A DNA stretch of 64,000 bases from Ginglymostoma cirratum. Taxonomy: Eukaryota. Below are positions 4,716 to 55,160 of this stretch, piece after piece. The stretch's first letter is position 1. Every line of letters starts with the position of its first letter. The position numbers and the translations under genes were made by a program. The notes beneath the pieces were generated by a model. It worked only from the letters and a program-made list of their open reading frames with translations. It was not told where the DNA came from and made no database searches. The stretch covers positions 9,382,064 through 9,446,063 of the forward strand of contig JAHRHZ010000088.1 in NCBI GenBank assembly GCA_024137785.1, given 5' to 3'.

Positions 4716-5188
4716 GAGATAACAAGGTGTAGAGCTGGATGAACACAGCAGGCCAAGCAGCATCAGAGGAGCAGGAAGGCTGACGTTTNNNNNNNNNNNN
4801 NNNNNNNNNNNNNNNNNNNNNNNNNNNNNNNNNNNNNNNNNNNNNNNNNNNNNNNNNNNNNNNNNNNNNNNNNNNNNNNNNNNNNNNNNNNNNNNNNNNN
4901 NNNNNNNNNNNNNNNNNNNNNNNNNNNNNNNNNNNNNNNNNNNNNNNNNNNNNNNNNNNNNNNNNNNNNNNNNNNNNNNNNNNNNNNNNNNNNNNNNNNN
5001 NNNNNNNNNNNNNNNNNNNNNNNNNNNNNNNNNNNNNNNNNNNNNNNNNNNNNNNNNNNNNNNNNNNNNNNNNNNNNNNNNNNNNNNNNNNNNNNNNNNN
5101 NNNNNNNNNNNNNNNNNNNNNNNNNNNNNNNNNNNNNNNNNNNNNNNNNNNNNNNNNNNNNNNNNNNNNNNNNNNNNNNNNNNNNNNN
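4716..5188 (-). mobile_element. Penelope-type hammerhead-bearing short element running into the gap; 13-bp TSD TAGATACAACTCT (4703-4715 / 5189-5201)
   Basis: Same sequence family as 20235-20341, 24645-24786 and 33661-34211; identical 13-mer on both sides. Confidence 0.75.
4789..5188. other. Assembly gap (400 N)
   Basis: Run of N. Confidence 1.
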
Positions 5189-6777: not shown

Positions 6778-6863
6778 CTTTGAAACATCAAAACGTCAGC
6801 TTTCTTGCTCCTCTGATGCTGCCTGGCCTGCTGTGTTCCTCCAACTCCATACTGTGTTATCCC
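6778..6863 (+). mobile_element. Truncated Penelope-type element with 12-bp TSD ATATTCAAATCA (6766-6777 / 6864-6875)
   Basis: AAACGTCAGCTTTCTTGCTCCTCTGATGCTGCCTGGCCTGCTGTGTTCCTCC matches 24688-24740. Confidence 0.75.
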
Positions 6864-8344: not shown

Positions 8345-9230
8345 ACAAGTGTTTGGCATATCTTTGTTAATTGAGGCTCAGAAAGCAGATCCAGAGTTAA
8401 GTAAATTGCACAGACAGCTGACACTGCAGCTGAGGTTGAAGGAGTTCAGGAGTGCTATTATAATAAACATGGAATTCCAATGGGGAAGTGGAATCATCCT
8501 CTTAGAGCTGCAGGCAAAAAATGGATGGTTGTTTACCAGGTTGTGCTACTGACATATTGCAAGTATGGCAGAACATATAGGACAATGGAAAACGTAGGCA
8601 TTGATAAACAGGAATTTTAAATGGCCAAGACTTCATAAAGATGTAGTGCAATTCTGTACAATGTGTCATAGATGTCCTAGGGTTGGAAAACATCAAAATG
8701 TATTCAAACCAGCACCTTTGATACCCAAAACAGTTTTTGAAGAACCATTTAGTTGCATGTTAGTCAATTGTGTGGGACTATTACTGAAAACAAAAGCAAG
8801 GCATAATTATTTTCGTGCAATTATGGATATGACAACTTAAGCCCCAGAAGCGATTCCTTTAAGAATAATTACAGTTAAGGTGGTAATAGAAAAGTTAACT
8901 CACTTTTTTACTGGTTTTGGATTATCAATTGAAATACAGTGTATTCAAGGTCCTAACTTTATAAAGTTTTCCAGGAAATCATTAGCAGTTTAGGTGTAAA
9001 ACAATTGAAGTTACTACAATCTACAAGCACAGGGACTTTGAAGAGATACTATCAGACTCTCAAAACCATGACTAAAGCATAATGTCACGAATGCCCACAG
9101 GATTGTGACAAAGGATTAGATCTAATTGCTACCAGAAACTACCCAAATGAATCTATTGGCGTCAGTCCATTTGAATTGATTTATGGTGATTAAGGAGATG
9201 TTCTAGAAATAAAAAGCCAAATCCTTAATG
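8345..9230 (+). mobile_element. Gypsy integrase relic (upstream of RT)
   Basis: ORF 8601-8840 reads WPRLHKDVVQFCTMCHRC...KPAPLIP..FEEPFSCMLVNCVG (HHCC finger plus start of the catalytic core), followed by PEAIPLRIIT, QGPNF and QGTLKRYYQTLKTM. Confidence 0.9.
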
Positions 9231-9234
9231 TTGG

Positions 9235-11310
9235 TTTAAACATATGGTGGGGGATAGGAACCTAAACAGCAAGACAGTAGAGAGCAAACCAAGGACAAAA
9301 ACAAAAGTCAGAATTGAAATATGAAGAATGTGATAGAAATCAAACGACAATGCTATATACTTTGAACAGGATTGAAAATGTTAAGAAGGCTTAAGGCATC
9401 ATGTCTTAATGTGTGAAGCATTCACAATGAAGTGGATGAATTGTTAAGCAAATAGGTATAAACAAATATCCAGGGATATTCAGTTTCTCGGAAGGACAAA
9501 CAAAGAGGAAAAGGAGACGAGGTAGTATTGCTGGTTAAAGAGAAAATTAACATAATAGTGAGGAAATATATTAGCTCTACTGAAGTAGAATCTATGTGGA
9601 CAGAACTCATAAAAACCAAGGAACTGAAAACAATGGCAGGAGTTGCATATAGGCCCCCCAAACTGTGATAATGTTGGGGAAGACATTAATCATGAAATTA
9701 GAGCTGCAAGCAGTTAAGGTACAGCTGTAATTGTGAATAACATTTATCTTCTCATGGGCTGGGCAAACCAAGTCAGTAACAATATCAAAAAGCAGGAATT
9801 TCTGAAGTGTGTACAATCTTGTTTTCTGGCTCAATATGTTGAGGAACCAACTAGAAGACAGGCCATCCTGGACTGGGAATTTTGTGATGAGACAAGAATA
9901 ATTGGCTATCTAGCTGTATGAGGTCCCCTGGGGAAGAGAGACCATAATATGATAGCACTCTTCATTCAGATGGAAAGTGACATACTTAATTCTGAGACTA
10001 GGGTCCTGAAGCTAAATAGTGGAAGCTACGATGGTGTGTGGCTCAAGTTGCCTATGATATATTGGGAAATGTTACTTAAAGGGATAATGGTGGGTAGGCA
10101 ATAGTAAACAGTTGAAGAGTGCATGGGGAAACTGGAACAATTGTTCGTTCCTGTCTGGCACAAAAATTCAACGGGAAGGGAGGTCCAGCCATGGTTAACA
10201 ATGAAAATTAAGATAGTGTTGGATCCAAGGAAGGGGCATATAAATTGTCCAAAACAAACAGCAGATCTCAGGGTTGGGAGCAGTTTAGATTTAGATTTCA
10301 GTAAAGGAGGATAAAGGGATTAATTAAGTGAGGAAAAATAGAGTACTGAGGTAAACTTGTAGGGAATATACAAACTGATCATAAAAACTTCCATAGGTAT
10401 GTGCAGAGAACAAGATCATTGAAGACATATATAGGTCCTTGACAATCAGAAACAGGGTAGGGCTTAATGGGAAACAAAGAAATGGCAGATCAATTAATTC
10501 ATATTTTGGTTCTGTCTTTACAAAAGAAGAACATTCCAAAAATGTTGGGAGACAGAGGGGTCTAGTGAGAAAGAGGAAATGAAGGAAATCCATATTAGTA
10601 GGGAAATGGTGTTGGGAAAATTGATGGGATTAATGGCCAACATCAGTCTAGACCCCAGAGTATTTGGGGACGTGGTCCAAGAAATAGGGAATAGCGGTCA
10701 TTTTTTCAAGATTTTATAGACTCTGGAACAGTTCCTGTCAATTGAAGGGTACCTAATGTAATACTGCTGTTTGAAAAAGGAGGTAGACAGATAATTATAG
10801 ACTGGTTAGCCTGACGTCTGTAATAGGGAAAATGCCTGAGTTCATTTAAAAAGATTTAATAGCAAAGGATTTGGAAAATGATGACAGGATTGGACAGAGC
10901 CAGCATTGGGTTACGAAAAAGACATCATGGTGGACAATTCTTTTGGAATTTTTTAAGGATGTAACTAGCAGAGTTGATCAGGAGGAACTAGTGGATGTGG
11001 TTTACTTGGACATTCAGAAGGCGTGTGATAAGGTCCCAATTAAGAGATTAGCAAGTATCAAAGTGTGTGTGATTAGGGGCAATGTACTGACATGGATAGA
11101 GAATGGCTGCAAACAGGAAACAGGAAAAACTGGATCAATTTCCGAGTGGCAGTCAGTGATCAGTGGGATATCAGTGGAATTGGTGCTTGGACCCCTAGTT
11201 ATTCATGATGTAAATGATTTAGATGAGGGAACTAAATTTAATATCTCCAAGTTTTCAGACTACGCAAAGCTGGATGAGGGAGAGTGGGTTCTGAGGAGGA
11301 TGCAGGGATG
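9235..11310 (+). mobile_element. CR1 LINE (endonuclease to RT) inserted between the Gypsy integrase and RT
   Basis: FLAQYVEEPTRRQAILD (endonuclease); ORF 10871-11347 has VDVVYLDIQKACDKVP...NDLDEG...KFSDYAKL. Confidence 0.9.
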
Positions 11311-11334
11311 CTTTTGTGTGGCTTCAGGAAGGCA

Positions 11335-12700
11335 ATGGCCAAGGTGATATTATTGCTAGACTGTTAACCCAGAAACCCTGGGTTGTCTATGGTAATGGGA
11401 AGATTTTGCAAGACTGCTTAGATGATAATCTTGAGAGACATATATCTGGAATTATTGCATCTACTAGGCATGATGTGGACATAAGGAGAGTCCAATGAAA
11501 CAGCATCCTTATTTGTGATCCCAGTAGAACAAGCATGAGTGGAAACAGAAATGCAGTACGTGGAAATCAATTTGCTTGAGCCTCACCAAAGTTTATCGGT
11601 AATGTTAGTTCCTTAACAGGCTGGATCAACCAGATTCATATAGGCCATATAAAAGGAAATGAAGTCACAAGACAGATTTGTACTCCATTCCATGGTGGTA
11701 TTGATAGGTTTGCCAGTGCCTCTTCCTTTATGAGATTGATATATTGAAAGGGTACTGGGAAGTGCCATTAACATTAATGAGTAAAGAAATGTCCACTTCT
11801 GTTACACAAAATGGATTATACCAATGTTCAATAGTGCCATTTAGGTTAAAGAACTCCCCAAGTGTAATCCAGAGACTTATTAATCAAGTCATAGCTGAGA
11901 TCCAAATGTACAGGTTATTTTGATGATGTTGTGATATACAGTAACATATGGAAAGAGCATGTGGGACTTGTCTAAGTAATTACGGTTGGCTGGCTTACTC
12001 ATAAATTTAGCCAAAAGTGAATTTGCAAAAGCAAGAGTAACTTATCTAGGATGCATTGTAGAACAATGACGTGTGTTGCCAAAAAAAGTGAATGTGAAGG
12101 CTCTAATAGAATTCCCTGTTCCTAGAACTAACTGAGACATTGAGAGGATTATACTGTATGGGTTTTATTTGAACTTTTTGCATAATTTCAGCACAGTAGC
12201 CGTAACTTTAACAAATTTGTTAAAGAAACAAACAGAAGTGGTATGATCTGCAGTATGCCAGGCAGCCTTTGAGAAACTGAAGGAAATCCTAAGAAGTGAA
12301 GCAGTATTGATCACCCCTGCCTTTTTCCAGACCTTACCAAACAGCGATTGATGCTAGTGACTTGGGGATATGTGGACTCTTGGTGCAGGATAATGAGTCT
12401 GGAATACAAAAGTCAGTAGAGTACTCCCCTAAGAATCTAAAGCAGTATCAGAAGAAGTACTCTGCTGTAGAAAAAGAGACATCAGGAATGCTATTGGCTC
12501 TTCAACATTTTGAAGTTTATGTCCAAAATGATAACTAGCAAACATTAATTTACAATAATCATAACATACTGGCATTTGCTGAAAATTTTAAAATGCAAAA
12601 TGCAAGACTATTCGGACAGAGTATCTTGTTTCAACCATTTAATGTAAAAATTATTGGAAAAGGTAATGTAATTACAGATGCATTATGCTGAGTGTAAAAC
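11335..12700 (+). mobile_element. Gypsy RT and RNase H relic
   Basis: LKGYWEVPL (~11746), VPFRLKNSP (~11835), YFDDVVIYSNIWKEH (~11916), AIDASDLG (~12344), KYSAVEKE (~12455), QHFEVYV, GKGNVITDAL (~12656). Confidence 0.9.
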
Positions 12701-22712: not shown

Positions 22713-24644
22713 AAAGCATGGACTGTTATCTCCACAGCTTTGGAGACTGAGAGGCAATCTGATAGAAGCATATAAAATTATAAGAGACATTGATAGGATT
22801 GATAGTTTGAGTCTTTTCCCCCCTGTGGGGAAATGTGAAATAGATGGTGGCGTAGGTTTAAGGTGAGAGGGGAAAAGTTTAAAGGAGATGTCTGGGGCAA
22901 GTGTTTTACACAGAGGTTGGTAGGTGCCTGGAACACACTGCCAGGGGATGTGGTAGAAGCAGATATGATAGCAACGTTCAAGAGGCATTTAGACAGACAC
23001 ATAAACAGCAGGGAATAGAGACATATAGACAATGTGCAGGCAGATGGAATTAGTTTAAAATGGCATCATGGTCAGTGCAGACATGGTGGGCCGAAGGGTC
23101 TGTTCCTGTTCTATACTGATCAATGCTACATGTTCCATGTTCTGTACTAGACTGGGTGCATGCATAAAAGGATATTTTTTCTGACTCTGATGTCTAGAAC
23201 CAGGGGACAATCTCAGAAAAAGATGCAAGCCTATTAGGACTGTGCGGACATGAAATTTGTTCACTCAGTCGATTGTGAACCTTTTGAATTCTGTAATCTA
23301 GAGGGCTGTGGAAACTCAGCCATTCAGTATATTTGAGACCGTGATTGATGGATTGCTAATGATATAAACAGATATGGGCAAAAGTCTTTCTTTTTGCCTT
23401 AAAGCGATAAACACTGCTCCCAGTATTGTGTTGCAACAAGTTAGCAATATGGTCTTGGCCAGGGCTCCCCACTGACATTTTAGCTGTGGGAAGTCTAACA
23501 TCAGTCCAGAGTTGCAGAGGATATACCAAAAGAACTGAGGGAGTTGACCTCACATAATCAAAAATATTTGGTGATTTACAGAAGGATTTTGGGTGTAAGT
23601 GGCATACAAAATATTATTTACAATTTTGAATGTAAAACTTGCAAAACTTATGAGCTGAAATTCTTTTTTGTTAAAATTCCCTAAGACATTTTATGCCTGA
23701 GTTATCAATTTTGACTGAACATCACCCAAAGTTTGCAGTTGTGGTTCAAAGAGACAAACCTTCTCATAGAGTCATAGAACATGTAATACAGCATGGAAAC
23801 AGGCCCTTTGGCCCAAACTGGTCCATGCTGATCATGGTGCCCACTCAGCTAGTTCCAATTGCCCGCATTTGGTCTGTACCCCTGTAAATCTTTCCCATCC
23901 ATGTACATATCCAAATGTTTTTCAAATGTTGGTATTATACCTGCCTCAACCATTTTCTGTAGCAGCCCATTTCATATACGCACTACTCTCTGTGTGAAGG
24001 TGTTGCCCCTCAGGTCCTTCTAAAATCTATCCCCTCTCACCTTAAACCTATGCCCTCTAGTTTTCAGTTTCCCTATCCCTGTGAAAAAGACTATATGCAT
24101 TCATCTTGTGCATGCCCCTCATGATTTTATGTACCTCAATAAGGTAACCCCTCATTCTTCTGCATTCCAAAGAATAAAGTCCTATCCTGGCAAACCTCTC
24201 CCCATAACTCAGGCCTACCAGTCCCAGCAACATCCTCATAAATCTTCTTTGCACATTTTCCAGTTTAACTATGTCTTTCCTATAACAGGGTGACCAAAAC
24301 TGTACACAATATTCCAAGTGCGGCCTCACCAATGACTTATATAACTATAATATAATGTCCCAACTCCTATAGTCAATGCATCAACTGATGAAGGCCAGCA
24401 TGCCAAATGCCTTCACCATCCTGTCCACCTGTGACACTGCTTTCAATGAGCTATGTACTTGTACTCCTAGGTCCCTCTATTCGACAACACTCCTCAGGAC
24501 CTTACCATTTACTACATAAGTCTGTCTTGGTTTGACTTTCCAAAGTGCAACACCTCACACTTATCTGTATTGAATTGCATTTTGGCAATCCTCAGCCCAC
24601 TTCCCCATCTGATCAAGATCCCTCTGTAATTTTTGATAATCTTC

Positions 24645-24786
24645 GGGAATTTTCAGGAAAGATTTTCTGAAGAAGGGTCCCAACCCGAAACGTCAGCTTT
24701 CCTGCTGCTCTGATGCTGCCTGGCCTGCTGTGTTCCTCCAGCTGCACACTGTGTTATCTCTGACTCCAGCATCGGCAGTTCTTCTC
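24645..24786 (+). mobile_element. Penelope-type short element carrying an intact hammerhead core
   Basis: Same family as the other copies; inserted into a minus-strand CR1. Confidence 0.8.
24654..24704 (+). ncRNA. Minimal type I hammerhead ribozyme motif (predicted cleavage after GUC at 24694)
   Basis: CUGAAGA (24667-73), A, stem II GGGU/ACCC with CCCA loop, GAAA (24687-90), palindromic ACGU, C. CAGGAAAG (24654-61) is complementary to CUUUCCUG (24697-704). Confidence 0.65.
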
Positions 24787-25124
24787 CCTGGATCTAACTC
24801 TCATAACTAGCCTGTCATGCGGGACCTTGTCAAAGGCCTTACTAAAGTAGCTCCGTTTTCTTTTTTGTCGCTTTGACCATGCCCCACAAAATTGAATACC
24901 TTTAACATGGAACACTTCTAACACCAAGTAAAAGAGGAATATCTGTTATTGGCAGGTACAAATTGATATGGGTGCAATGTCCCGTTGACTTTGATTTTCT
25001 TTCAGACTTACTACCTCCTCGTTAATTATGTTTTATGAGAGAGAATTTCCAAGCAAGTTATTCCTTTGTCCATCTACAAATCTCTTATCAAGCTTGCTAA
25101 AATTCCTATTACTGTCATTTAAAA

Positions 25125-26360
25125 AAAATTCTCCTGTGGGATATTGGCATCAGTGGTTGGCGAGCACATATTGCCTGTCCCATCCCTTGCGACTCTTGAG
25201 AAGGTGGTAGTGAGCTGCCATCTTGAACCACTGCAGTCCCTGTGGCGTAGGTTGAATCGCAATCCCCTTAGGGAGGGTATTCCAGGAATTTGACCCATCA
25301 ACAGTGAAGAAATGACAATATATTTCCAAGTCAGGATGATGAGTGTCTTTGAGGGGAATTTGCGGCTGGTGGTGTTCCCATGTATCTGCTGCCATTGTCC
25401 TTCTAGATGGAAGTGGTTATGGGTTCGGAATATTCTGTCTTCTTTTGAAGTGTTGTTGGAGCTGCATTTATCCAGGCAAGTAGGGAGTATTCCATCATAC
25501 TTCCTGCTTGTGCCTTGTAGATGGTGGACAGTCTTTGGGGAGTCAGTAGGTGAGTTACTCGCCACAGTATCCTAACCTCTGACCTGCTCTCATAGTTAAT
25601 ATTTGTATGGCTATTTGAGTTTCTGGTCAATGGTAAGCCCCAGGATGTTAGTAATGGAGGATTCAGTGATGATAGCGCTATTGAATGTCAAAGGCAATTG
25701 TTAAATTGTCTCTTTTTTGAGATGGTCACTGCCTGGCATTTGTATGGCACAAATGTTACTTGCCACTTCTCAGCCCAAGCCTGGATTTTGTCTAGGTCTT
25801 ATTGCCTTTGACCATAGATAGCTTCAGTATCTGAGGAGTTGTGAATGGTGCTGAACATTATGCAATCATTGGTAAACATCCCCACTTCTGACATTATGAT
25901 GGAGGGAAGGTCGTTGAAGCAACTAAAGATGGTTGGATCTAAGATACTACCCTGAGGAACACCTGAAGCTGAGATGACTGAACTGCATCAACCACAACCA
26001 TCTTCCTGTGTGCCGGGTGTGACTTCAACCAAAACTGGTTGAAGAGTTTGCCCCGATTCTCATTGACTCCATAGTTTCTAGGGCTCCTTGATGTCACACT
26101 CGGTCAAATGTGGCCTTGATGTCAAGGGTGTCACTCTCACCTCGCCTTTGGAATTCAGCTCATTTTACTATGTTTGAACCAAGCTTGTGATGAAGTTAGG
26201 AGCTGAGTGGCCCAGGCAGATCCCAAATTGGGCATCAGTGAGCAGGCTGGTGCTAAACTAGTACCGCTTGCTAGCACTTTTGATGACTCATTCTATCACT
26301 TTACTGATGATTGACAGCAGACTGATGGGGCGGTAATTGGCTGGCTTGGATTTGTTGTTT
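25125..26360 (-). mobile_element. CR1-clade LINE, second family (same as 36000-37360 and 61300-62975)
   Basis: HLLTPQRLSTIYKAQAGSMMEYSLLAWINAAPTTL; 3' tail AGCTCACTACCACCTTCTCAAG...GGCAATATGTGCT. Confidence 0.85.
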
Positions 26361-29409: not shown

Positions 29410-32400
29410 CCTATAAGATAAGACCGTTCGGCCACCAAGCCTGCTCTGCCATTCGATCATGGCTGATACGTTTCTCAACCCCATTCCCCTGCCTTCTCTC
29501 TGTAACCTTTAATCCATGTGCTAATGGTGAACCTATCTATCTCTGTCTTAAATACACTTGGCCTCTGCAGCCTTCTGTGGCAATGACTTCCACAGATTCA
29601 CAACCCTATGGGTGAAGAAATTCTTCCTCCTCACATCAGGTCTAAAGGGTTGTCTCTTCACTCTGAGGCTGTGCCCTTGGGTCCTGGTCTGTCTTAGTGG
29701 AAACATCTTCCTTCTAAGCTCCATTAAGTACAGACCCAGATTCTTCAACTGCGCCTCATATGACAAGCCTTTCATCCCTAGGATCATTCCAATAAAGTTA
29801 CTCTTGACCCTCTTCAAGGTCAACACATCTTTCATTAGATTGGGGCCCAAAACTAACTACAATATTCCAGATGAACTCTGACCCGAGCCTTGTACAGTCT
29901 CAGCAGTACACGTCTGCTGTTGTATTCTAGCCTTCTTGAAATTAATGCTAATGTTACATTTGCCTTTCTAACTGCCAACTGTACTTGCATGTTAACCATG
30001 GGAGAATCCTGAACTAGGACTCCCACGTTCCTTTGAGATTCAGATTTACAAAGCCTTTCCCCATTTCAAAAATAGTATAGGGTTCTATTCTTCCTACCAA
30101 CGTGCATAACCTCACACTTTCCCATATTGTATTCATCTACCACTTCATTGCCCACTCTTCTAGCCTGTCCAAGTCCTTCTGCAGCCTCCCTGTCTTCTCA
30201 ACACTACCCAACCCTCCACTTATCTTTGTGTCATCTGCGAACTTAGCAACAATGCCCTCAGTGTGTCCTCATCATTAATGTATAATGTGACTAGTTGTGG
30301 TCCCAACATGGACTCCTGTGAACTCCACTAGTGACCATCCTAAAAAAGACCCAATTATCTACCAGTTAGCCAATCCTCTATCTATGCCAGTATCTTGTCC
30401 CAAACACCATGGCTGTTATTTTGTTTAGCAGCCTCCTGTCTGGCACCTTTTCAAAAGAAGTCCAAATAGATGACACCCACTAGCTCTACTTTGCTTAGCT
30501 TGCTCATTACCCCCACAAAGCATTCTAACAGATTTGTCAGGCATGACATCTCCTCGATAAAGCCATGTTGACTCAGACCTGTTTTACCATGCACTTCCAA
30601 GTACTCCGCAAGCTTATTCTTAATAATGGACTGAAAATCTTGTTTGTCATTTTCCACTCCTCTGGGATCCTCCCTCACTCCAGTGATTTCTGTAATATCA
30701 CCACCAATGCCTGCCCAATCTCACTAGTTATCTCCTTCAGATCCCTGAGGTGTACTCCATGTGGTCCAAGTGATTTATCCACCTCGAGACTTTTCAGCTT
30801 CCCCAACACCTTCTCCTAAGCGATGGTCACCATGCTCAGCTCCGCTCTCTGACTCTCTTGAAGTTCTGATCTGCTACTGGTGTTTTCCACTATAAAAACT
30901 TATTCAACTAACTATTCAATTCCTCTGCCATTTTTTTTGTTCCATGTTATTACTTCTGCAGCCTCAATTTCCAGCAATCCAATGTTCACTCTTGCCTCTC
31001 TCTTTAGATATCTTAAATAAAACTCTTGCACTCTTCTTGAGTATTACTAGCTAGCTTACCCTCATATTTCATCTTCTCCCTCCTTACTGCTTTTTTTTTC
31101 GTTATTCTCTGCTGGTTTATAAAGGCTTCCCAATCTTCAGGCTTCACACTAATCTTCACCATATTGTATGCCTCTGTTTTGCTTTTATGCTGTCCCTGAC
31201 TTCCCTTGTCAGCCAAGGTTGCGTTGTCCTCCCCTTAGTATGTTTCTTCTGCCTTGGGGTGAATTTCTATTGTACTTCGTGAATTATCCCAGAAACTGGT
31301 ACCATTCCAATCAGTTCTGGCCAGCTCCTCCCTCATGTCTTTGTAGTTGACTTTTTGTTATGTAATACAATTACATCCAATTCAAGCTTCTCTCTCTCAA
31401 ACTGCAGGGTGAAATCTGTCATATTATGGTCACTGGCTCTCGGGGTGCCTTCACCTTAAGCTCATCAAGTCTGCCTCATTACACATCAACAAATCAGAAT
31501 CACCACATCCCTAGTGGGCTCTACCACCAGCTGCTCCAAACAAAACCGTCTTGTAGACATTCCACAAATTCATTTTCTAGGCTACCAACCTGATTTTCCC
31601 AGTTCCCCTGCATAGTGAGATTCTCCACAGTTGTTGTAATAGTGTCTTTCTTGCATGCTTCTTCTGCTTCACATCCTGACTACCGCTAGGAGGCCTACAT
31701 AACTCACATCAGGGTCTTTCTTCATTTGCAGTTCCTCAACTCTACCCATACAGATTCTATGCTTTCCAACCCTAAATCATTTCTTGCCAGTGATTTAACT
31801 TCATTTCTTACTAACAAGGCAATCCCGCTCCCTCTGCCCATCTGCGTGTCCTTTCGATAGGACGTGTCCATGGATATTTAGTTCCCAGCCCTGAACCCTT
31901 TGCAGCTACATCTCTGTGATACCCGCAACATGGTACCCAGCAATTTCAATGCAACAAGCTCCATTTATCTTGTTTCATATACTGCATACATATAAATACC
32001 ACACCCTCAGTCTTCCATTGACCAACCCCTTTCTCATAGTTTCCCTCTTTCTGCTGCGCCTGAAGTTAAATTCCTAACCCTTTCCATGCTCTCTGTCATA
32101 TTACATGTTCAGGAAACTTTAATAACTTCTCCTGAGCCTTCCAACCTTTAACTAGTTTAAAGTCCTTGTAACCTTGATTTACCTCAAATTGCACCATCAG
32201 TTCATCTATCTTATTCTGAATCCTTCATGCATTAAGATACAAAGCCTTTAAGTTTATTCTATTATCAAGTCTCCTTACACGTTTTTATGGTTCCTTCATA
32301 CAATATGACATTCTCATATTCTATCCCTTCCTTTTATTTTGTAGAAGCAATCAACCCCATCACTAATCAGTTATCCTACTTTCGCCTTTATCTTTGATTT

Positions 32401-33660
32401 CATTAGTTTCCACGCAATTGAATCCACTCCCCACCCCCAACAATTTAGTTTAAAACTCTATCTGCAACCCTAGTTGTGCAATTCACCAGGACTCTGGTCC
32501 CAGCATTATTCAGCTGAAACCCGTCTTATCAGAACAGCTCCCTCCTTCCCCAGCACTGGTGGCAGCATCCCATGCATTCAAACACATTTCTCCCACACCA
32601 GTCTTTCAGCCAGGTGTTTATCTCTTTAATCTTGTTGACTCTGTGCATATTAGCTTGTGGCTGAGGTAGTAATCTGGAAATTATTGCCTGTTTTTGGTTT
32701 TGCTTTTAAATTTAGCTCTTAGCTACTCACATTCCCCCAGCAGAGCATCTTTCCTCTTTCTGCCTATATTGTTTGTGGACCGCAACAACTGGAGCTTTTC
32801 TCTCCCGGTCCAAGTTCTTCTGCAGCCCAGAGGAGATATCCTGAACCCAGGCACCAGGCAGGCAACACAACCTTCAGGACTCTCAATCCTGGCCATAGAG
32901 AACAGTGTCTATTCCCCTGACAATACTATCCCCGATTACAACTGCGTTTCTTTTTGCTTGCCCTCTTGAATGGCTCCTTGTACCACAGAGCTATGGTGAG
33001 TTTGCTTATCCTCATTATAGCCCCTCCCTCTCATCCACACAGGGAGCAAGAATCTCAAACCTGTTAGGAAAGCTGCAGGACTGAGGCTCCTTCTGCACGA
33101 CCTCCTGGATCCCTCCATCTGACTCGCTCATTGTCACACCCTCCTGTCCCTGGCCACTCACCAAATCTGAGGTAGTTAATGTAAAGCGTGTAATAAAAAC
33201 AGAAGTTGCTGGAAAAGCTCAGCAGGTCTGGCAGCATCTGTGAAGGATAAATCAGAGTTAACATTTCAGGTCCGGTGACTCTTCCTCAGAGAGGCATTTT
33301 TTTTCCTTCGCAGACGCTGCCAGACCTGCTGAGACCCAAGGGCACACCCTCAGAGTGAAGAGACAACCCTTTAGACCTGATGTGAGGAGGAAGAATTTCT
33401 TCACCCATAGGGTTGTGAATCTGTGGAAGTCATTGCCACAGAAGGCTGCTGAGCTTTTCCAGCAACTTCTGTTCTTGTTCCTGATTTACAGCATCCGCGA
33501 TTCTTTTGGTTTTTATTTAACATAAAGGGTGTGACTGCCTCCTGAAACACAGCATCCAGGAGACTTTTCCACCTCTCTGATGTTTCGCAGTGTTCGAAAC
33601 TCAGGCTCCAGCTCATCATCTCTGAGCCAAATTTCCTCAAGCAACCAACACTTGCTACGG
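29410..33660 (-). mobile_element. Near full-length degenerate CR1 (ORF1 esterase, ORF2 endonuclease and RT, 3' tail)
   Basis: ORF1 GDSIVRGID..CCLPGA.VQDI at ~32820-32935; ORF2 SQHGFIEEMSCLTNLLECF (30451-30678); RKNFFTHRVVNLWKSLP near the 3' end. Confidence 0.9.
33192..33522. mobile_element. Palindromic Penelope-type element (second subfamily) with a degenerate hammerhead on the minus strand and a 117-bp templated insert
   Basis: Inverted arms ACAGAAGTTGCTGGAAAAGCTCAGCAG / CTGCTGAGCTTTTCCAGCAACTTCTGT; minus strand CTGAGGAAGAGTCACCGGACCTGAAATGTTA; imperfect TSD TAAAGCGTGT / TAAAGGGTGT. Confidence 0.8.
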
Positions 33661-34211
33661 AGATAAAAGGTACTGCAGATGCTGGAGAATCCGAGATAAC
33701 AAGCATGGGGCTGGATGAACACAGCAGGTCAAGCAGCATCATAGGAGCAGGAAAACTTGACGTTTCNNNNNNNNNNNNNNNNNNNNNNNNNNNNNNNNNN
33801 NNNNNNNNNNNNNNNNNNNNNNNNNNNNNNNNNNNNNNNNNNNNNNNNNNNNNNNNNNNNNNNNNNNNNNNNNNNNNNNNNNNNNNNNNNNNNNNNNNNN
33901 NNNNNNNNNNNNNNNNNNNNNNNNNNNNNNNNNNNNNNNNNNNNNNNNNNNNNNNNNNNNNNNNNNNNNNNNNNNNNNNNNNNNNNNNNNNNNNNNNNNN
34001 NNNNNNNNNNNNNNNNNNNNNNNNNNNNNNNNNNNNNNNNNNNNNNNNNNNNNNNNNNNNNNNNNNNNNNNNNNNNNNNNNNNNNNNNNNNNNNNNNNNN
34101 NNNNNNNNNNNNNNNNNNNNNNNNNNNNNNNNNNNNNNNNNNNNNNNNNNNNNNNNNNNNNNNNNNATGATGCTGCTTGACCTGCTGTGTTCATCCAGCC
34201 CCATGCTTGTT
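33661..34211. mobile_element. Palindromic Penelope-type element spanning the gap; 14-bp TSD AACACTTGCTACGG (33647-33660 / 34212-34225)
   Basis: 33697-33742 and 34167-34212 are inverted copies of each other on either side of the N run. Confidence 0.8.
33767..34166. other. Assembly gap (400 N)
   Basis: Run of N. Confidence 1.
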
Positions 34212-37960: not shown

Positions 37961-39322
37961 GCTTCATATAAGAATCTTGTAATGTGAGACTGTAAAGCTA
38001 TTGTGTGTTATCTCTTGCAGTAATAGTATTGGTAGTATGAGGGAGCCTGATCACAGCCACACTAGCTCATTTTCTCATCTAACATCCACACTTGTATAGT
38101 TTCCCATTGAATCATGAACAGAAACATTGACTAGAGTTTTTTAAAGAAGTTCTCTTGTCCTTTCTCCATTGACCTCATTGACCCAAGTACCATATTTATT
38201 GTATTCAGGAGGGAGATTGTCATTGTTTGCCCAGATGGAATCTTCCCAGGCCTGCTGAAGCAGCTTTGCCAGTAGGACCGGAAGGAATAGTAGGGTTTTA
38301 GAATGGCCTGGTTTCAGATCAGTGGCCTGTGAGTTCCCAAGTCTGGCTGATCTTGGCAGATGCAGTGTAAAAGTGGCGAGGCACTCTGCCTTGACAGATA
38401 ACCACATTGCACATTTAAATAGACAGTTTGGGGATGTCACTATCATTTTCCCAGTTGTAATAGGACCTCAACTGAGGCCAAAGCGTGACAGGCACTTGGA
38501 GGTGATTTCCTGTGGCCCAGCACGGGTTGGGAGCCACAAGCTTTCCCTTCCATAGTGACCTTGTAGTTGTGGCCCCCTGCTTAAATTTTATAGATGGGAA
38601 TGCCTCCAGGGAATATCTCAAGATGCCCCCCTCCTACAGCAGCAGTGCTGACTTCAGGAAGGTGAGGCCTCTGTCCCTTCAAGTTTACAGGCCCTTTGAA
38701 AGGACCTAAAAAGGCCTACTCTCTCAGGAACAGGGCGACTATCCTTAGTTAGATTATAGGCACCGAAGCAGCCAGTTAGGATACTGTCTGCTCAAAGGTC
38801 ATGTCCTGCCGACAAGTGCAAGGTTGGGACTCAGAAATAGTCCACACCCGCATTAATTTGAAAAGAACTTATGATTCAGTCATCATGAGTGATTTGCAGA
38901 TAATGTAGTTTTTTTTTAATATTTCAGGGGTCTTAGTTGTATATTGAATAGGATTCATCTTAGCCAGGGCTGGGGGAGGGGGTACAGGTTAGATGAAGTA
39001 AAGAGACTTTTGTTAATTCTGCTCACTTCTATTTTTATCTTTGTGCTTGGTGGAATTTGAGGTTGAGGTTTTATACCTTGAAGCAAAGCATTTGATAGAT
39101 ATTGTAGAAATCTCCAGAAATGTGTGCATTTGATTTTTGTCAACGGCTTGCAGATTTTTATGTTAAAGTGAGTGGTCAACCCAGTTGTGAAATATGCAGC
39201 AAAAATAAACTTTAACTGATAAATTAGACAGTTTCAAAAGTATTTAACTTAAAATCTTTGTATCAGTTTTCTTTCCATCAGCTTTATTAATTCATTGATC
39301 TAGATTATTTTTTCTCTTGCAG

Positions 39323-39349
39323 GCACAGTACGGAAACTACCAGCAATAG
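39323..39349 (+). CDS. SS18L1: Terminal coding exon of SS18L1 (CREST, nBAF subunit): AQYGNYQQ*
   Basis: Strong acceptor TTATTTTTTCTCTTGCAG, then GCA CAG TAC GGA AAC TAC CAG CAA TAG, matching the SS18/SS18L1 C-terminus (GQYGNYQQ*). The paralog was chosen because SS18L1 lies directly upstream of MTG2 on the same strand in human. Too short for the ORF track. Confidence 0.85.
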   Translation, partial: AQYGNYQQ

Positions 39350-42300
39350 GAAACAGCTGATTGCCATCTCTGAATCAGTCATGTATGCACAACATCCTTC
39401 ATTGATTTTTACAGACTAAAATGAAGCATGGACTGTCATATTTCATTTTTAAGAGGTAGCTCAAAGCAGCTTCTGGATGTTGTAGAAATTTTCATTCTTT
39501 TCATGGTGAATAGTAACATTGCACTACCAATGACAAGCCAATGCGTATTAGTTTTAGACTTGGTGCTGTGAATATTGTACGTTTTAAACTGTTGCACTGT
39601 TGTACAATTGCATCTGTTTGTTAATAGGATTGCAACCTAATACTAGTGCACTTCCACCGTGGAAACACAAGATGGTTGGTTTTATAAGTTTGTAGGTGCT
39701 CTCTAAAGCAGTGAATTGTCCTGTGGATTTAAGCACCTGTGTGTTTATACTAAACTTTGCACTATTTTTTTTTCTTCCACATTAAATGCAGCAACCAAGT
39801 ATTGGAAAAAGATCACTAAAAAATTCACTTGTGTTTTCAGTAAGGTCTAATAGGAATGCAACATGTAAAGTTGCACATTGAGGAAGTACATTGTCACCTT
39901 GATCCTAAAGCATAGATAAATTATATTCAAATGAGGAATTAATTGTCAGAGGTAGTTGCTGTGGTGCATTTGATTTCTATAAGGGAGGCAGTCAATTCTA
40001 TGTCAATTCTTATTGCTTGTTCACAGATTGATGTCCATAATTCCTCACCATTTTTCTGAACAAATGAAATGCTGCATATGAATGACTATCACTTGAATCA
40101 GGTGAAAGTGGTATAGAGGTCAATACTTTGAGAGTTATATGGCTTGATAATAATGGGGTCATCCAAAGGAAAGTATAAAGTGTTGACTAGTGGTACACTT
40201 TCACAGTTTTTTTTATTGTGCTCTTAATGAGAGTGATGTGTATGTGAAATAATATTAATAATAGAAAAGCAATTCTTTTGTTCTAATTTGGTGTCCGCAA
40301 AATGTTGCCTCAAAAATGATTTTTAAAAATACGACCAGAAACAGTTGTGTCTAATAACTTTGTATTTATGAGTGCAATTGCTGCATAACTGAGTATTGAA
40401 AATATTATATATCAATATGAACAGATAATATCAGTGAACCCATAGTGAATTCTATGTTTAAGCTCTAAAATTAGTTCTCATGCTAACAGCCATTTTTCAG
40501 GAATTTTTCAGTAGATAGGGAATCAATTTTGATATATTTTATGTTTTTGTGGTTTACCTTTGGTAGCAACTTGTCTTCATTCAGCACCTGTTCAGACTTA
40601 GTACAGGTCTAGGGATGGCAGTATTTTGAGATTAGAAACAAAGCCTTGCTGCAGATGGCATGGTGGCCAAATGGTTATAACACTGACTGTCTTCCATCAG
40701 AAGACCACCACCTTGAGTTCCAAGTTGAATGCTGTCTGTATGAGTTCTATCACTTGCTTGTTGGGCTTTAGGCAAAGTGGGCTGCAGCTATTAATCAGCC
40801 CACACTAATTTGAGCAAAGGACTACTTGTGCTTATAACAGAGAAGTGTTGGCAACAATTAGAAAGAAAACAGTAAACTGGACCATACTATCTACCAACAA
40901 TAGGGTTCAGGAAACCTCGTGTGTGATGGAGGGGTGGGGATATATTGGAGACATTTGGAGTACAGTTCCAGAAGTATTACAATAAATGTGTTACATTTAC
41001 ATTCATTATTGATTATCAATTTAACCAGAAAAGTGTGTTCTTTGTTCTAAAAACTATTCGAGAAAATGATTCTAAAACACACAGTCCAAAGTCAACCATT
41101 TTGTGTAAATATTAAAAACATTCCAGAGTGCACCAGCTTGTCCACTGTGGGAATGTAAGGACACGTAATTTATTGAGCACTGATGATTACACCGTTTGCT
41201 GTAAGATTTGTATTTGTGTACAATCACATGAACATTTTGCATTTCATTTGCCAATTTTTTTTTGGTCTTGCTGTTAAACAGCCAAATAGCTGAAATACAG
41301 ATTGTACTGTGACAATCATCTGCTTGTTTTCAAGAAACAAAAAACTTGAGATTTTAGTATATTGAATTTTTTTTATGAAACTTGTTGTAATGTTATATGT
41401 TAAGTCTTTAACTTCTCATCATTATCTAAAAACACTAAATGTTGAGTAAATGTGTGTGCATCTCTATTAATGGAGGCAACTGCTGTTTGAATTTAGTGAC
41501 CAAAAGAAGTTGAAGTTGTTGTAAGTACAAGTGAGTTGAATTGTCTTGCCTGTACTGGACATTGTATGTTGCTACTTAAAGTTGTTACATTCTAATTTTA
41601 AGAGGAATCTAATAAATCATTGAGTTAAATATATTTTTAATGTGCAGTTCACATCCAAATATCCTTCAAGTAGGATTGTTTGTATTATCCTTTGCAAAAC
41701 AAGACTAATAATGTCTCAAAATTATGAAGTGATGATTGGTTAGCTTTCTATAAGGAGGGGAGGCTTGAAAAAGTCTGCAGGTAACAAGGAGTTGGAGTGG
41801 ATAATCATTAGTTTTAATGGTAGTTTTATTTTATGCCAGTTGATGTTCTGAATGCATGCTTTGGTTCAAGGATAACTATTTCATGTGTAGCAGACTAGAT
41901 ATTCCACGCTACAGCAGTAAACTTTCAGAATATTTACCCAATGCTCCAAAAAGAACTAATTCTGAAATATCAGGAATTGATATGTTCTTAACTGACTTGA
42001 GCTGAGAAATCCATTTGGTTTTGTTGAGTGATGTCCATGGTTCCAAGATGACACATTCTGAAATTGAATTCTACCACTTGAGCAATTTGACCAGCACCAC
42101 AAAAAGTATCTCTCCACAAAACTTCTGCTGGTTTGTCATTTTAAAAATCTGACTGCTTCATTAATGTTCTTCATTCAAGGGAAGCTGCAACCCCGACCTG
42201 TGACAGTTCCACATGATTGACTCACAAAACCTCAGACCAATTGGGTTGAGCAATAAATGCTGCTTTTCCAAAGTTACCCTCTTCCAGAGACTAAATAAAA

Positions 42301-45347: not shown

Positions 45348-47108
45348 ACAAATGCATTAAGAGCAAGAGGGTAACTAGAGAGAGATTAGGACCTCTTAAA
45401 GATCAAGGAAGTGTTCAACCCCAGGAGATGGGAGAGATACTAAAGGAATATTTACTGTGGAGAAAGAAATTGAGTCTAGAGAATGCAGAGAAATAAACTC
45501 TGATATTTTAAAAACAGTTCACATTACAGAAGAGGAAGTTCGGGAGATCTTAGAGATTATAAAGGTGGATAAATCTCTGGGACCTGATCTACTGTATCCC
45601 AGAACATGTGGTAAGTAAGGGAGGAAATTGCGAGACCCCTTGCATAAATATTTGCATCATCTATAACTACGAGTGAGGTGTCTGATGACTGGAGGGTAGC
45701 TAATGTTGTACCTTTGTTTAAGAAAGGTGTAAAATCAAATCGGGAAACTGTAGACCTGTGAGTCTGACTTCAGTTGTGGGTAAATTGTTGGAGGTGATTA
45801 TAAAAGATGGGATTTATAGACATTTAGAGAGGCACAAATTGATTGGGGATAGTCAGCATAGTTTTGTGCGAGGCAGATTGTACCTCACAAACTTGACAGA
45901 GGTTTTTTGAGGAAATTCCCAAGAAAATCGATGATGGCAGAGCAGTAGATGTTGTTTATTTGGATTTCAATAAAGCCTTTGACAAGGTTCTGCAAGGTAG
46001 ACTAGTTAGTAAAGTTAGGTCACATGGCACTCAGGGTGAGCTTGCCAGTTGGATACATAATTGGCTTAACGGCAGGAGACAGAGAGTAATAGTGGAGGGT
46101 TGCCTGTTGGACTGGAGGCATGTGACCAGCAGTGTTCCACTGGGATGGATCTGGGTCCTTTATTGTTTGTCATTTCTATAAATGATTTGGATGAGAATAT
46201 AGAAGGCATGGTTAGTAATTTTGCGGACGACACCAAAATTGGTAACATTGTAGACAGTGAAGAAGGTTTTCTGAGATTACAAAGGGATCTTGATCAAATG
46301 AGTCAATGGACTGAGAAATGGCAGATGGCCTTCAATATAGATAAATGTGAGGTATTACATTTGGGTACAAAAAACAAATGTAGGGCTTATACAATTAATG
46401 GTAGGGCCTTGAGTAGTGTTATGGAACAGAGGGAACTCGGGGTGCAGGTACATAATACTTTGAAGTTTGTGTCACATATCAACAAGGTAGTTAAAAAGGT
46501 GTTTGGCACGCTTTCCTTCATTGCTCAGTCCTTTTGAGTGTAGGAGTTGGGAAATGATGTTGAAGTTGTACAGGACATTGGCGAGGCATCTTCTGGATAC
46601 TGTGTCCAGTTCTGGTCGCCCAGTTATAGGAAGGATATTTATCAAGCGAGAGTGGGTTCAGAAGAGATTTACCAAGATGTTGCCAGGAATGGGAGGTTTG
46701 AGTTATAATGAAATGCTGGATAGGCTGGGACTTTTTCACTGGAGTGCAGGATGTTTAGGAGTGACCTGATAGAAGTTTATGTATACCTCTCATTATTTTA
46801 TAGAGTTAATAGTAATGTTTTTTCCCTAGGATGGTGCTTTCAAGACCAGGGGCCACATTTTTAAGGTGAGAGGAGACAAAATTAAAAAAGACGTGGGGCA
46901 AATGTTTTTGCACAGAAGGTGGTTCCTGAGGAAGTGATGGATGCGGGTACGATTACGACATTTAAAAGACATTTGAATAAGTATATAAATAGGAAGGGTT
47001 TGGAGGGATAATGGGCCAAGTGCAGGCAGGTGGAGCTAGTTTAGTTTAGAATTATGGTTGGTATGCACTGGTGGGACCAAGGGATCTGTTTCCACGCTGT
47101 ATCACTCT
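45348..47108 (+). mobile_element. Relatively well-preserved 5'-truncated CR1 ORF2 plus 3' tail, directly upstream of the MTG2 promoter
   Basis: DFNKAFDKVLQGRL, LGPLLFVISINDLDENIEGMVSNFADDTKIG, WQMAFNIDKCEVLHLG; tail GGGATCTGTTTCCACGCTGTATCACTCT. Confidence 0.93.
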
Positions 47109-54929: not shown

Positions 54930-55160
54930 TAATAAAAGCAAAATACCGTGCATGCTGGACATCTGAAACAAACACCGAGAAATCTGAAGAAATTCAGCAT
55001 GTCTGGAAATGTTTGTGTGGAGAGAGACAGAGTTAATGTTTCGAGTCTGATTTGACTCCTCAGTTCTGAAGAAGTTATTATCAGACTCATTGTCAATTCT
55101 GTTTTTCTCTCCACAGATTTTGCCAGATCTGCAGAGTTTCTCCAGCAGGTTTTGTGTTAT
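54930..55160. mobile_element. Palindromic Penelope-type element with two back-to-back degenerate hammerheads (last MTG2 intron)
   Basis: Minus strand CTGAGGAGTCAAATCAGACTCGAAACATTA; plus strand CTGAAGAAGTTATTATCAGACTC; inverted arms. Confidence 0.75.

Follow-up and report, generated by a model that had tools for sequence, protein, structure and literature searches.

A minimal hammerhead motif at the start of a very abundant repeat in shark SS18L1: a likely Penelope-like remnant predicted to be inactive

Introduction

HH9 and HH10, the ultraconserved intronic hammerheads of amniotes, are canonical, single-copy and conserved ribozymes that are active as monomers. Like them, the motif described here, from the nurse shark Ginglymostoma cirratum, lies in the sense strand of what is most likely an intron; unlike them, it is minimal and is one of very many copies of a repeat.

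Minimal hammerheads have been known since 2014 from the pseudo-LTRs of metazoan Penelope-like elements (PLEs), where they occur mostly as single dispersed copies, as does the shark motif, for which, however, no linked open reading frame was found (Cervera and De la Pena, PMC4209133). Their published helix I range begins at 2 bp, and single motifs gave no cleavage while dimers gave low cleavage (PMC4209133), a distinction between monomer and dimer with which a review agrees (PMC6765202). PLEs themselves are described as carrying inverted copies at their 5' ends and an optional tail (PMC8557442), the latter 30-40 nt in length (PMC8557442; PMC11167929), and 5' truncation to a single terminal repeat is their usual outcome (PMC8557442; 10.64898/2026.07.22.740005). 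The introns of the whale shark have been reported to be rich in such elements (10.1101/443036).

Three described systems come closest to the shark locus. The motif of the Neptune element of Acropora digitifera shares with it CUGANGA, an extra base before stem II, the G10.1-C11.1 pair, GAAA-CG-UC without a loop III, and AGC past the cut, but has a helix I of 3 bp where the shark copy has 2 bp with a wobble, and a different loop II (PMC4209133). In the Poseidon element PAc of Anolis carolinensis, as in the shark repeat, the hammerhead lies about 110-120 nt upstream of the 3' end and two 3' end positions define the tail; however, the tandem element PAc is complete and has its protein, whereas the shark copy is a solo remnant known from sequence only (Frangieh et al. 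2024, PMC11167929). The PAc motif cleaved only with the element's protein, no RNA-seq ends were found at its cut site, and uncut RNA is its template (PMC11167929). Finally, non-LTR retrozymes resemble the shark copy in being non-coding, in carrying a type I hammerhead, in their relation to pLTRs and in occurring in a cartilaginous fish, but they are tandem arrays with at least two hammerheads and the shark copy is a monomer (Li et al. 2026, 10.64898/2026.07.22.740005). In the same source, eight of nine frog dimer elements showed no cleavage.

Here we have analysed a 64-kb stretch of shark DNA (the window, to which all positions refer). We consider it very likely that the motif is a hammerhead with which a very high-copy shark repeat of 120 nt begins. 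This repeat is probably what is left of a Penelope-like retroelement, a solo pseudo-LTR and its tail, and we predict that this lone intronic copy is inactive.

Results

The minimal hammerhead core occupies positions 24667..24694 of the + strand. Read directly, it consists of CUGAAGA from C3 to A9 (24667-24673), an extra A between A9 and stem II (24674), a 4-bp stem II of GGGU/ACCC with the loop CCCA (24675-24678/24683-24686), GAAA (24687-24690), C15.2-G16.2 (24691-24692), U16.1 (24693) and C17 (24694), and these letters place the predicted cut at 24694/24695. The first-pass annotation had claimed that every conserved core nucleotide is present and this is confirmed, as C3-U4-G5-A6-N7-G8-A9, G12-A13-A14-A15.1 and U16.1-H17 are all found, together with G10.1-C11.1 (G24675-C24686), and the whole fits the consensus of Fig. 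S3 in PMC4209133. It was equally right that stem III is reduced to the palindrome ACGU (24690-24693), there being no loop III. The two means of detection it had proposed gave different answers. Rfam models returned no hammerhead in the window, neither at the gathering score nor with E up to 10, which is unsurprising for a motif that would lack a helix III. A motif descriptor (core, stem II of at least 4 bp, palindromic pair and UH), modelled on Cervera 2014 and composed post hoc when the motif had already been seen, matched at this one site in the window, compared with five matches in 300 dinucleotide shuffles.

The motif forms the 5' end of a 120-nt repeat remnant (24664..24783, + strand), which was delimited by comparing copies within the window and by aligning four of 24 sequencing runs to 24300-25200 at 80% likeness. 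Among the matches listed for the four runs, loose ends cluster in front of 24663/24664 and after 24758-24760 and 24783; the 5' ends of family copies fall at 24663/24664 and not at the cut site, and the two 3' end positions are followed by about nine further shared bases. Between the latter lies an optional 3' tail (24760..24783, + strand), which is present in the SS18L1 copy and in the copy at 33766 and is missing from those at 6791, 20336 and 4788. Depth was very high in all four related runs: over 24672-24764 it came to 4-11 million, compared with roughly 9 in the unique flank for the two DNA-type runs (X1 and X10); the other two, presumed to be RNA, consist of contigs, which do not show RNA ends or strand. 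The repeat is very abundant, and this depth is read as abundance alone, not as copy number. Relatives occur throughout the window by BLAST and by profile search, the latter giving 16 matches to a profile built from 10 of the same 16. No tandem array of the repeat was found at the SS18L1 site, and the descriptor recognises one motif only in the window.

Inverted arrangements are a recurrent feature of this family. Head-to-head inverted copies lie at 55063/55067 and around the gap at 33767-34166, and opposite-strand joints at 24664 are found in related runs, among the joints listed. The window has two gaps of 400 N, at 4789-5188 and 33767-34166, both inside insertions of this repeat family and both framed by target duplications of 13-14 nt; the second, a head-to-head pair, carries the tail at just one of its ends, and an intact core on the sense strand may be concealed in it. 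A second repeat subfamily, at 33289(-), 44297, 47572, 55063(-), 55067, 57320(-), 57340 and 58702, is set apart by its helix I and by the greater length of its stem II, every copy being decayed and two pairs standing head-to-head.

The Penelope-like label follows from the head-to-head inversions, the optional 3' tail and the near-identical coral Neptune hammerhead, and the claim of a Penelope-type minimal type I hammerhead with a palindromic helix III is supported. As in PLEs, the repeat is 5'-truncated and inverted copies adjoin its 5' end. No linked RT/GIY-YIG ORF was found in the window, either by motif search or by comparing 148 ORFs with Pfam, and membership in the Penelope group thus rests on non-coding features. 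Solo PLE remnants normally have no such ORF. In the SS18L1 copy, stem II and the far 3' end are about 109-118 nt apart, and this parallels the reverse-transcription start sites of PAc, a parallel that is no proof (PMC11167929).

Searching further afield, we found the motif pattern at nine loci (L001-L009) in metagenome contigs and at none in viral contigs. At these loci the hammerhead is nearly identical to the shark motif, begins just upstream of the core and is either solo or head-to-head (two of the nine), and no reverse transcriptase was seen by eye among their ORFs of at least 100 aa. Their likeness to the published Acropora motif suggests that they may be coral host DNA. The portions of Table S1 and Fig. 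S3 of PMC4209133 considered here hold no shark entries, and a literature search, in which most matches were judged by title, gave no title devoted to shark minimal hammerheads; the motif class has nevertheless been known since 2014, and the shark copy is a further example of it.

Eight window copies have a readable hammerhead region, of which four keep all core letters and one, the SS18L1 copy, keeps both core and stem II. One intact copy among several decayed ones would need no selection and fits neutral decay, against which stands the survival of both core CpGs. Covariation was assessed in a set of 14 related sequences (six window copies and eight of the nine metagenome loci; L009, whose motif does not differ from that of L006, was omitted). 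In these, 86.4% of cells were paired, compared with 14-42% in slid controls and only marginally above shuffles. Two-sided change was seen in two of nine pairs of these related sequences. Of 500 shuffles, 14-38 equalled the real set in three measures, and 378-474 did so in two.

Helix I is short where it meets the core. The proximal helix has only 2 bp (24665..24696, + strand), U24666-A24695 and a U24665-G24696 wobble, with a U/C mismatch at the third position, compared with 3 bp in seven of the nine metagenome look-alikes. The first-pass annotation had proposed that an 8-bp flanking complement, offset from the core, could serve as stem I. The complement itself (24654-24661/24697-24704) is exact and is indeed separated from the core by unpaired bases; its standing as a native stem I is not supported, since its 5' half lies beyond the family boundary at 24664, other copies are without it, and the predicted folds stack it on an inactive structure, in which the core pairs with bases across the cut site. 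More broadly, 24654-24663 is the reverse complement of 24695-24704 in nine of ten bases, and this, with the opposite-strand joints at 24664, marks 24645..24663 (+ strand) as junction filler that lies outside the repeat and is the source of the 8-bp arm. Pure chance was set aside as the origin of the arm: random 21-mers gave one as good in 14 of 5000 cases near the cut site and in 62 of 5000 within 40 nt, and a templated junction is more likely. We read the arm as a short fold-back or inversion junction, probably formed at insertion and specific to this locus. The inverted arm (24654-24663) starts exactly at the first base past the predicted cut site. Related runs have one joint at 24664/24696 among many other positions, and enrichment at the cut site is not shown.

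The repeat sits in a broken LINE. To its left is a decayed CR1-like LINE reverse-transcriptase fragment (24133..24644, - strand), recognised by its translation and by 69% identity to the LINE copy at 46262-46776, which matches RVT_1; the CR1-like LINE resumes at 24782..24850 (- strand), with a LINE loose end before 24794 in the runs. Some 215-240 nt of LINE are missing at the repeat site, a target duplication was looked for at the insertion and none was seen, and no contig bridging the motif site was found in the four runs examined. Other retroelements in the window include a 121-nt LINE piece present at 33333-33453 and 29563-29683 with 98% identity, the former of which breaks an inverted repeat copy, suggesting a local duplication or an assembly artefact, and LTR retrotransposon fragments at 8598-12535 with Pfam matches to an integrase zinc finger, RT and RNase H.

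The host gene was placed by the coding part of its last exon (39322..39357, + strand), which agrees in 12 of 12 residues with three cartilaginous-fish SS18L1 records and, in another frame, in eight of nine with coelacanth. Public records read this exon in two frames: in the three from cartilaginous fish it follows a shark cassette exon, whereas in coelacanth it gives the usual QYGNYQQ end. The exon being on the + strand, the motif is on the SS18L1 sense strand, and the orientation originally assigned to it is borne out. No credible match to other SS18L1 exons was found in the window with a 426-residue shark SS18L1 as the query, and 148 stop-free frames of at least 62 residues in 1-39300 gave only retroelement domains and weak matches against Pfam. 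MTG2 follows downstream at 49-56 kb, its best single-domain match being 95% to a Stegostoma tigrinum record. The motif is thus most likely in the last SS18L1 intron, which would exceed 39 kb, with the upstream exon outside the window.

In folding, stem II forms with a probability of 0.85-1.0 in the 51-mer. The core is mispaired across the cut site with a probability of 0.99 in the 51-mer, 0.8 in 191 nt and 0.08 in 401 nt, and hammerhead-compatible folds make up at most 5e-5 of the ensemble, compared with 1e-4 to 3e-8 for control look-alikes. We rejected folding as proof of inactivity, as control look-alike loci score equally low and tertiary energy is not part of the model.

Discussion

We propose that reverse transcription of the parent RNA would have started at the tail, passed through the hammerhead in its uncut state and stopped some 3 nt upstream of its core, and that a short fold-back at that 5' end could have produced the 8-10 nt inverted arm. 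Family 5' ends at 24663/24664, rather than at the cut site, fit uncut RNA as the template, in agreement with what is described for PAc (PMC11167929). Within the parent element, cleavage would require a dimer formed through the ACGU palindrome, probably with the element's protein assisting. A monomer such as the SS18L1 copy would be unable to close helix III, and with a helix I of 2 bp next to its core this copy should be inactive. Given that published monomers are inactive, that dimers are poor and that PAc needs its protein, cleavage of the SS18L1 pre-mRNA by this lone copy appears unlikely and the copy is most likely silent.

The alternative that survives best concerns the nature of the element. 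The repeat could be non-autonomous, SINE-like or retrozyme-like, with the hammerhead as its starting point and Penelope proteins as the means of its mobility, and so be no truncation product of an autonomous element. We think this unlikely, although it would account for the sharp shared 5' boundary, upstream of which the sequence is mostly unrelated among related copies (agreement 0.35-0.46), and for the full-length window copies, all of which begin within a few bases of the core; retrozymes, moreover, derive from pLTRs (10.64898/2026.07.22.740005). However, the site has no tandem array, a minority of related copies run on upstream with a shared pyrimidine-rich stretch, and truncation to one terminal repeat is usual for PLEs (PMC8557442; 10.64898/2026.07.22.740005). 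Such a reading would alter the label of the repeat and not the inactivity of the SS18L1 copy.

Less probable still is slow cleavage of the SS18L1 pre-mRNA by this copy within a dimer, its partner being in the same intron or in trans and the 8-bp arm acting as an extension of helix I. Core and stem II are intact and on the sense strand, 2 bp, a 3-nt bulge and 8 bp would make a possible helix I, the family from which a partner could come is very abundant, and PLE hammerheads are reported as dimer cleavers (PMC4209133; PMC6765202). Against this, the arm stacks on the inactive fold, and the energy of the active swapped dimer exceeds that of two monomers by about 13 kcal/mol, compared with 12-20 kcal/mol for controls, so that the SS18L1 copy is no better poised than ordinary motifs of the family type. 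Dimer cleavage was poor in PMC4209133 and absent from most of the frog dimer elements (10.64898/2026.07.22.740005), and among the readable sense-strand copies of the window no partner has both core and stem II intact. One may be concealed on the sense strand 9 kb downstream, in the gap at 33767-34166, and this leaves a small chance of activity.

A bolder version of this idea, which we regard as very improbable, is that the inversion junction gave the copy a 10-bp helix I that the family lacks, that the start of the arm at the cut site could record cleavage of the parent in vivo, and that the copy now cleaves the last SS18L1 intron as a dimer with a hidden sense partner, influencing splicing to the last exon; more broadly, many intronic copies could then form genome-wide conditional RNA cut sites in sharks. 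A chance likeness to the hammerhead, for which the Rfam silence and the weak covariation over 14 sequences might speak, is in practice refuted by the five descriptor matches in 300 shuffles, by the recurrence of the motif with a compensatory stem II pair in distant metagenome look-alikes and in the published alignment (PMC4209133), and by core letters that are conserved across the family around variable stems.

On its most likely explanation, as a silent Penelope-like remnant, the locus carries little weight, being one more shark example of the motif class of 2014. If it were true that the copy cleaves the SS18L1 pre-mRNA, it would be a case in which the insertion junction has activated a transposon ribozyme, with a chromatin-remodeller gene as the target. 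At the level of the family one small point is added, namely that copies end just upstream of the core rather than at the site of the cut. This agrees with in vitro work in which uncut RNA was the template for insertion.
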